DNA of 64,000 nucleotides, taken from contig CAWCMR010000025.1 of NCBI GenBank assembly GCA_963796685.1, positions 832,001-896,000 on the forward strand. The letters are read 5' to 3'. The notes beneath the pieces are model-generated. The model had not been told where the DNA came from. It ran no database searches and was given only the letters and a program-made list of their open reading frames with translations. Below, piece after piece: positions 6,575 to 7,078 of this stretch; positions within the stretch are counted from its first letter, which is position 1; each line of letters starts with the position of its first letter. The translations under genes and the position numbers were made by a program. The DNA is from an uncultured delta proteobacterium. Its GTDB lineage: Bacteria > Myxococcota_A > Polyangia > Fen-1088.

Positions 6575-7078
6575 CTAATCTCCTTCGTTAGTTGGGTGAA
6601 CCACAGAGGACACAGAGGACACAGAGGACACAGAGGACACAGAGGACACAGAGACGGACTTCGGAGGTTTCAAACGACGAACTCCGTGTTTGAGCAGGCC
6701 GACGTTGAAGTTGATGAGGAGGCCAAGCGGAAGCCCGGAGAGCTTCAGATAGGACAGGAGCTGCGCACTGTGGAGAGCCACCAGTTGGTCGACCGCCTTG
6801 ACCTCGACGATCAGCACATCGTCGATGACCAGATCGAGACGATATCCACAGTCCAGTCGCGAACCTCGATAGACAACGGGGAGTTTGCGCTGGCGCTCGA
6901 CCCGATGTCCCTGAGAGACAAGCTCATGGGCTAGGCAAATCTCGTACGCCGATTCCAAAAGTCCCGGGCCCAGAAACCGGTGAACTTCAATGGCACTTCC
7001 GATTACCGCCTCCGAGATCCGGTTCAACCCGTCCTTTCCGACCTCTGTGTCCTCTGTGTCCTCTGTGGTGAACATCAA
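6575..7078 (-). CDS. GxxExxY protein (PD-(D/E)XK nuclease-like family)
   Basis: [49 protein letters not shown]...GLLINF. Termini are encoded by 9-bp repeats ([17 protein letters not shown]). Confidence 0.93.
6600..6655 (+). repeat. 9-bp tandem repeat (CACAGAGGA) x5 plus one variant; left end of the GxxExxY cassette
   Basis: Copies start at 6602, 6611, 6620, 6629, 6638 and 6647 (CACAGAGAC). Confidence 0.95.
7041..7069 (-). repeat. Inverted 9-bp tandem repeat (CCTCTGTG core) x3; right end of the GxxExxY cassette
   Basis: acctctgtg tcctctgtg tcctctgtg gt, the reverse complement of the 6600 array. Confidence 0.95.

Follow-up and report, generated by a model that had tools for sequence, protein, structure and literature searches.

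A GxxExxY nuclease gene between comM and recA as the only gene carrier in a dispersed family of array hairpins

Why should a small nuclease gene, enclosed by inverted arrays of a 9-bp repeat, sit in the narrow junction between comM and recA? The question is raised by a 64,000-nt stretch of DNA (the window) from an uncultured delta proteobacterium, positions 832,001 to 896,000 of contig CAWCMR010000025.1 in assembly GCA_963796685.1, where an open reading frame (ORF) of the GxxExxY/PDDEXK_3 family and its two arrays occupy that junction. An earlier interpretation made from the letters alone (the sequence-only reading) had described this cassette as a minimal selfish element. We found that it is indeed dispensable and polymorphic, but it does not stand alone: in the genome that holds the window (G000; 7.31 Mb in 26 contigs, 64.6% G+C, 88.6% complete) it is the single gene-bearing member among about 60 gene-less hairpins of 100–120 bp. 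Position numbers refer to the window unless a contig is given, and the features concerned are the following.

7075..8577, minus strand: comM, encoding a YifB-family Mg-chelatase-like AAA ATPase (ORF list; TIGR00368, 565 bits; PF01078/PF13541/PF13335)
6575..7078, minus strand: GxxExxY/PDDEXK_3 ORF of 167 aa, likely start ATG at 7075 (ORF list, profiles)
6674..7021, minus strand: folded nuclease core, residues 20–135 (hidden Markov model envelope)
6597..7072, minus strand: the array-hairpin element in full, 476 bp including both terminal hexamers (C25:838597-839072; terminal-motif pairing)
7042..7067: 5′ arm in the direction of the gene, with the 9-bp unit 2.9 times; the terminal hexamer follows at 7067–7072
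6602..6653: 3′ arm, with the 9-bp unit 5.8 times; its terminal hexamer is at 6597–6602
5526..6572, minus strand: recA, the downstream gene (TIGR02012, 542.7 bits)
48692..48815: gene-less hairpin copy of the same family as the cassette (sequence; nhmmer match C25:880700-880809)

Tandem Repeats Finder reports 5.8 copies of CACAGAGGA at 6602–6653 and 2.9 copies of its reverse complement at 7042–7067, with 100% matches in each, and the two-unit 18-mer has seven matches in the window at up to two mismatches, versus none expected from 100 shuffles. The two arms are perfectly complementary over 26 nt (6620–6645 with 7042–7067) and 90% complementary over 39 nt, and RNAfold predicts a terminal stem of about 31 bp, with a minimum free energy of −224.1 kcal/mol and a z-score of −4.77 (0 of 100 shuffles were as stable). 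The inverted arrays around the gene and the pairing of its ends into a long stem, both proposed in the sequence-only reading, were therefore borne out, as were the contacts that it described with the neighboring genes. The TGA stop of comM (7075–7077) is overlapped by the TTG/ATG start of the nuclease ORF, whose TAG stop (6575–6577) lies 2 nt before the recA ATG at 6572, and the ribosome-binding site of recA falls within the tail of the nuclease ORF. Only the order needed correction, as all three genes are on the minus strand and run from comM through the nuclease gene to recA. The arrays are translated into repetitive tails, which read ..TTEDTEDTE.. towards the N-terminus and ..SVSSVSSV.. towards the C-terminus. 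A promoter scan found no sigma-70-like promoter.

The enclosed ORF matches TIGR04256 at 140 bits (cut-off 35; profile positions 2–114 of 116) and PF13366 at 141.7 bits (cut-off 22; profile positions 2–116 of 117). Alignment with 18 diverse homologues marks G39, E42, Y45, D82 and E92-x-K94 as invariant, and by this alignment the catalytic PD-(D/E)XK residues of the comM–recA nuclease are intact. The AlphaFold (AF2) model has a mean predicted local distance difference test score of 81, with values below 50 for residues 2–12 and most of 145–167, and the repeat-encoded tails are predicted to be disordered. Structural comparison with VIA-align matched the model only to generic restriction-endonuclease folds (Cas4 SSO0001, Z 8.0; R.SwaI, 7.8; BpuSI, 7.7; Hjc, 6.3). 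A PDB search by sequence profile gave no match, that is, no solved relative by sequence, and Foldseek with the nuclease model gave nothing at E ≤ 0.001. The family comprises at least 7999 proteins at E ≤ 0.001 among the 8000 best candidates scored in a protein search, and in the 2012 PD-(D/E)XK survey the function of PDDEXK_3 is given as unknown (PMC3424549).

Gene-less relatives of the cassette are scattered through G000. Terminal 12-mers (at most two mismatches) form 43 pairs within 1.5 kb genome-wide, 28 of which are 96–125 bp apart, and a profile built from those 28 hairpins gave 131 matches that merge into 67 loci; a regular expression for the CRCRGAG unit found 72 arrays of at least three units. 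The common anatomy is a terminal hexamer, tandem units, an inner arm, an ORF or a short loop, and then the mirror image. Short copies have 2–4 units and a short central palindrome between the inner arms, and form a long imperfect hairpin. Because their left inner arm resembles the first codons of the nuclease domain, in the conserved LNRI(S/T)E stretch, and because the profile of these mini-elements matches the 5′ 106 nt of the gene-bearing element (E 3.6e-9), they look like internal-deletion derivatives. G000 contains one intact GxxExxY gene and two short fragments. Longer candidate ‘elements’ in this genome (232–602 bp and above) were considered as further gene carriers and rejected: they are either hairpins into which non-coding DNA is nested or termini paired by chance.

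The gene-less hairpins have a stereotyped position with respect to genes. Gene calls around them were crude, based on third-position G+C; by these, 59 copies had genes on both sides, and the two neighbors converge in 26 cases, are co-directional in 33 and diverge in none (p ~4e-8 versus a 25% expectation), while the remaining 8 of 67 loci either overlapped a called ORF (3) or had a gene called on one side only (5). Most begin 2–40 nt past a stop codon. They have a T-run ahead of the stem and an A-run behind, which is the arrangement of an intrinsic terminator reversed, and we rejected the reading of the hairpins as intrinsic terminators on this ground and because the terminator scan was unconvincing (few weak consensus matches, the hairpin stem not among them). 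No target-site duplication was apparent at the 28 hairpins with clear ends, where the longest direct flank repeat averaged 3.96 nt versus 4.27 nt in a mismatched-flank control. The copy in the window at 48692–48815 lies 1 nt after the stop codon of a gene for a pyridoxal phosphate-dependent enzyme, upstream of secA. It is present in G000 and the related genome G002, half-decayed in G010, reduced to a remnant in G004 and absent from G001; a sharp empty-site junction was sought among these relatives, and stepwise decay was found instead.

The sequence-only reading had suggested comparing relatives for an empty comM–recA junction. Reading the junctions from the recA loci of 30 relatives, we found several states.

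GxxExxY gene with arrays: G000, G010, G002, G006, G004, G003, G005
3′ gene fragment and degenerate array: G011
3′ array remnant alone: G008
remaining scar of the 5′ terminus, about 12 nt: G001
clean junction, 34 nt from stop to start: G007

Empty junctions therefore do exist, in G007 and in six other genera of the family, where comM and recA adjoin and the element has left no trace, and the nuclease gene is not syntenically fixed within the genus. At all occupied sites the ATG lies within a few nucleotides of the comM stop and the tail of the ORF spans the recA ribosome-binding site. Two nuclease lineages are found among these occupants, and they do not follow the host: G000 and G010 share RecA residues 1–200 at 100% identity (97% over the whole protein) and have nuclease cores that are 62% identical, and G000 and G006 have RecA at 96% and nuclease at 88% identity. 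The states of the junction and this incongruence indicate gain, replacement, decay and loss of the cassette at a single fixed site. Comparing the comM–recA flanks among relatives for a clean empty site with a duplication gave an ambiguous result. Most genomes of the class have two recA paralogues, and the cassette is found only at the recA adjoining comM. The occupant in G003 has RLE in place of the invariant RLD (the catalytic Asp) and HG in place of HR, and judging from these substitutions it may be decaying.

How far does the pairing of gene and arrays extend? A homologue scan with one genome per species confirmed 598 loci, the best 80 of which were examined; 12 had no successful anchor search and 4 were exact duplicates, leaving 64 distinct loci. 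The 80 come from Chloroflexota, Planctomycetota, Verrucomicrobiota, Acidobacteriota, Chlamydiota, Cyanobacteria, Bacteroidota, several proteobacterial classes and two archaeal metagenome-assembled genomes (MAGs). Inverted arms scoring at least 14 surround the gene at 52 of the 64 distinct loci, compared with 0 of 320 in shuffled, 9 of 64 in direct-orientation and 32 of 320 in cross-locus controls, so that most of these homologues carry inverted arrays, as the cassette does. The repeat unit varies by lineage, the upstream and downstream arms matching each other, and a conserved terminal hexamer, with ACC as its last letters (GGT on the opposite arm), recurs throughout. The array period is 8 or 9 nt, and since several loci hold their arrays outside the ORF, translation of the arrays is incidental. 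The proposal that a 9-bp unit preserves the frame when repeat number changes thus holds at comM–recA, where metagenome orthologues have 2–6 units in frame in the C-terminal tail, but is not general. The 3′ terminus frequently lies 5–20 nt before the start of the next gene. Some sites recur in several genomes; in four Burkholderiales MAGs, for instance, an array-flanked GxxExxY gene stands within an operon between apparent trpE and trpG genes, as read from end sequences only.

Gene-less hairpins also accompany the gene in distant genomes. Five of these have 6, 36, 29, 18 and 34 arrays (control 1, 0, 0, 0 and 0) beside 5, 6, 1, 9 and 4 GxxExxY matches; array pairs about 400 nt apart bracket genes, and pairs 30–110 nt apart are gene-less hairpins. 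One Waddliaceae MAG has five identical GxxExxY copies, the identity reaching at least 100 nt into the flank on each side, and they are probably part of a larger repeated unit. Within the genus, the eight genomes with a nuclease gene above cut-off have 48, 22, 10, 4, 117, 20, 22 and 38 array matches (both strands), and the five without one have 1, 0, 0, 0 and 0; a reversed-pattern control gave 0 throughout. The six other genera of the family have neither GxxExxY gene nor arrays. The two truncated fragments in G000 (C25:1266996-1267124 and C13:521578-521679) are flanked by inverted arrays of another unit that occurs only twice genome-wide, and the intact gene goes with the 72 CRCRGAG arrays.

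Three cases complicate this picture. G026, a genome from another family (91% complete), has 42 array matches, in hairpins of about 80 bp with different loops and in solo arms, and no PDDEXK_3 match at that completeness. G000 itself holds, at C5:241070-241415, a PF05635 ‘23S rRNA intervening sequence protein’ gene, encoding a four-helix bundle, flanked by inverted arrays of a 6-nt unit; 63 such arrays occur in G000, often as close inverted pairs, and by its layout this gene with its arrays is a parallel gene-plus-hairpin system. G004 has 43 GxxExxY matches and only 4 arrays of the genus pattern. In the 20 copies fetched, a 579-bp unit has 23-nt terminal inverted repeats, with perfect 9-bp duplications in 17; all 73 end motifs in this genome pair accordingly, the gene-carrying 579-bp element is present in about 37 copies, and two 2018-bp versions additionally encode a 438-aa DDE_Tnp_1 (IS4-like) transposase. 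The GxxExxY gene inside keeps degenerate inverted arrays of its own, which lie inward of the transposon ends. The nuclease in G004 is thus a passenger of an IS4-type element, and we rejected its 43 gene matches as proof that the nuclease element transposes, as they are due to this element and its 579-bp derivative.

What, then, relates one gene to so many hairpins? Because the cassette is the single gene-bearing member of a family of about 60, the closest analogy is the pair formed by REPINs, hairpin-forming doublets of repetitive extragenic palindromic (REP) sequences, and RAYTs, the REP-associated tyrosine transposases. There, a usually single-copy enzyme gene lies between inverted copies of a repeat that is dispersed in hairpin-forming doublets about 100 nt long. 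These repeats lie outside genes and are specific to the enzyme lineage, and repeat populations track the presence of the gene (PMC3337134, PMC5581495, bioRxiv 10.1101/2022.05.22.493013). The present system differs in that a PD-(D/E)XK nuclease of about 120 aa takes the place of an HUH/Y1 (IS200-like) transposase, that its arms are arrays of a 7-mer with a 1–2-nt spacer behind a conserved terminal hexamer and not a single REP palindrome, and that the ORF reads through the arrays at the comM–recA locus. A RAYT-type transposase (PF01797) had no match in the 88.6% complete G000 assembly.

Given a single-copy array-flanked gene, lineage-specific units, co-occurrence of gene and arrays and no duplications, a REPIN/RAYT-like relation is the one that we favor, tentatively and with slightly less than even confidence: the cassette would be the gene-bearing ‘master’ copy, and its PD-(D/E)XK nuclease the cognate trans-acting enzyme of the hairpin family. 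The nuclease would recognize its own repeat unit on a hairpin, a cruciform or a single strand, and cutting at that unit would drive the copying, maintenance or gene conversion of hairpins, with gene-less copies arising by internal deletion of a gene-bearing one. In transcripts the arms may pair as they do in ORF-bearing 23S rRNA intervening sequences (IVSs), and such pairing, together with stop/start coupling, would let the insert sit inside an operon. The descriptive core on which this reading builds is well supported, namely a gene-bearing member of a dispersed hairpin family, turnover at its site and an ancient, widespread pairing of nuclease and arrays.

Several points weigh against a REPIN/RAYT-like relation. 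We infer both the action of the nuclease on hairpins, from co-occurrence and the matching of cognate units among related genomes, and the way in which the cassette moves. The counts within the genus amount to no statistical test, because the genomes are kin, and G026 has arrays without a detected gene. A gene for a non-catalytic four-helix bundle with the same architecture suggests that the enclosed protein need not be the mobilizing enzyme, and the passenger in G004 indicates that gene copy number can rise without the nuclease acting as a transposase; together with G026, these weigh against a simple enzyme–substrate story. Eight of the hairpins in G000 travel within an unrelated composite miniature inverted-repeat transposable element (MITE), a repeat of about 280 bp that has terminal inverted repeats of its own and is present in eight near-identical copies that each enclose one hairpin (e.g. 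C8:132445-132800 and C25:1368090-1368440). Finally, the comparisons of the window copy at 48692–48815 and of comM–recA in relatives found no recent insertion with clean junctions.

The best-surviving alternative places the cassette mainly at the RNA level. Its arms, pairing over about 30 bp in the comM–recA transcript, would be cut by RNase III or by the encoded nuclease, which would release or silence the nuclease mRNA while the host cistrons stay functional, and the dispersed hairpins would be 3′-end RNA elements. The model here is the ORF-bearing 23S rRNA IVS of the Leptospira and Coxiella type, which is sporadic and leaves the host RNA functional; one of 428 nt has a terminal stem of 28 bp, carries an ORF in its loop and is cut in vitro by RNase III (PMC4990558). 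IVS and cassette are alike in size and layout, as sporadically distributed elements of 430–480 nt whose terminal inverted repeats give a stem of about 28–31 bp (31 bp is predicted for the cassette, z −4.77) with a small ORF in the loop, and the IVS-family PF05635 gene in G000 likewise lies between inverted tandem arrays. The hairpins’ positions just past stop codons are also in keeping with a role in RNA, and arm mismatches at gene-bearing loci show more G:U than A:C on the sense strand (62 versus 37, p=0.015), an excess that is weak and maybe confounded. The cassette differs from these IVSs, however, in lying between protein-coding genes, in encoding a nuclease in place of a four-helix bundle and in having many gene-less copies. 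Among the gene-less hairpins, the 35 whose upstream gene is unambiguous are as stable on one strand as on the other (sense −60.07 versus antisense −60.19 kcal/mol; 20 versus 15, p=0.76), so that they bear no RNA-specific signature. None of the 60 homologous loci scanned, from the 80, lay in an rRNA gene at the Rfam gathering threshold (two tRNAs were the only matches), and no Rfam family matches the cassette element at E ≤ 1. Twenty sequencing runs were screened, with a share of sampled words of at most 0.14 in each; the one RNA run gave 0.05. As this account covers tolerance of the insert but not how copies disperse, how alleles are replaced or why gene and arrays occur together, we consider it unlikely to be the main explanation, though it deserves some weight. 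By analogy, an IVS-like RNA stem may nonetheless explain why the insert is tolerated in the operon, which is compatible with a REPIN/RAYT-like relation.

Homing-type gene conversion is a less probable account, and we regard it as improbable. Gene-less hairpins would then be empty homing sites, cut by the nuclease and repaired by copying in the ORF through the shared arms. PD-(D/E)XK homing endonucleases exist, and as with free-standing homing endonuclease genes the cassette has a small nuclease ORF, with presence, absence and allele replacement at a fixed junction; congeners with RecA 96–100% identical have nucleases of two divergent lineages at the very same junction, and the arms are common to both lineages. 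Unlike such genes, it is bracketed by long inverted arrays and has dozens of gene-less copies at unrelated sites. Most genomes have a single gene copy beside 10–117 hairpins, so that conversion of hairpins to gene carriers must be rare, and the resemblance of the left inner arm to the conserved LNRI(S/T)E codons favors deletion of the ORF over its insertion.

MITEs and the Correia/NEMIS, ERIC and RUP elements are short, dispersed, hairpin-forming extragenic repeats that are co-transcribed with their neighbors, and the hairpins resemble them as dispersed intergenic inverted repeats of about 100–120 bp. That the hairpins are an ordinary non-autonomous MITE, which a DDE transposase from another locus moves in trans with the nuclease as a passenger, is what the gene-carrying element of G004 with its 9-bp duplications, its transposase-encoding versions and the composite MITE of G000 would suggest. 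We consider it very improbable, since the array hairpins themselves have no target-site duplication, their full-length partner encodes a nuclease and not a DDE transposase, termini and arrays are conserved across phyla beside GxxExxY genes and not beside any transposase, and even in G004 the gene keeps its own inverted arrays within the transposon ends. Least likely of all is that nothing here is mobile, the arrays being host regulatory or structural sequence (protein-binding sites or mRNA 3′-end stabilizers) and the nuclease an unrelated small gene, for although the hairpins have a stereotyped position past stop codons and G026 has arrays without the gene, presence differs among congeners at orthologous sites, whole-genome array counts range from 0 to 117 within one genus, and the unit switches between lineages with both arms staying matched.

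Two other tandem repeats lie in the window, an 81-bp unit in 3.3 copies with 100% matches at 46015–46281 and a 34-bp unit in two copies of 94% identity at 60221–60289.

A wider generalization can be drawn, which we hold to be possible but doubtful. GxxExxY nucleases would form an ‘array-hairpin’ class of elements across bacteria, reaching archaea, with the four-helix ‘23S-IVS proteins’ as a parallel class; in both, a small protein would recognize a lineage-specific unit of 6–9 nt on a hairpin and propagate or maintain gene-less copies downstream of genes without target duplication, and ORF-bearing rRNA IVSs would be a special case. IVS-family genes have been described as interspersed in cas operons, with repeats unmentioned in the available text (PMC3936711), and in rRNA insertions of candidate phyla radiation bacteria (PMC11270868). 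The literature searched, in which coverage of subscription journals was limited, so that an earlier description is possible, contained no description of arrays flanking GxxExxY genes or of gene-less derivatives. The pairing of nuclease and hairpin repeat across many phyla suggests an undescribed kind of repeat-plus-enzyme system.

For annotation, the arrays produce spurious repeat-encoded protein tails (TEDTED.., SVSSVS..) and may confound repeat and CRISPR finders as well as operon annotation. For the GxxExxY/PDDEXK_3 family, whose function is unknown, near-universal, lineage-specific inverted arrays and gene-less hairpins provide a concrete, testable substrate. If the nuclease does act on the hairpins, it would represent a second, mechanistically unrelated route to REP-like repeat populations, and the 30-year-old puzzle of ORF-bearing rRNA intervening sequences would be tied to a general class of elements.

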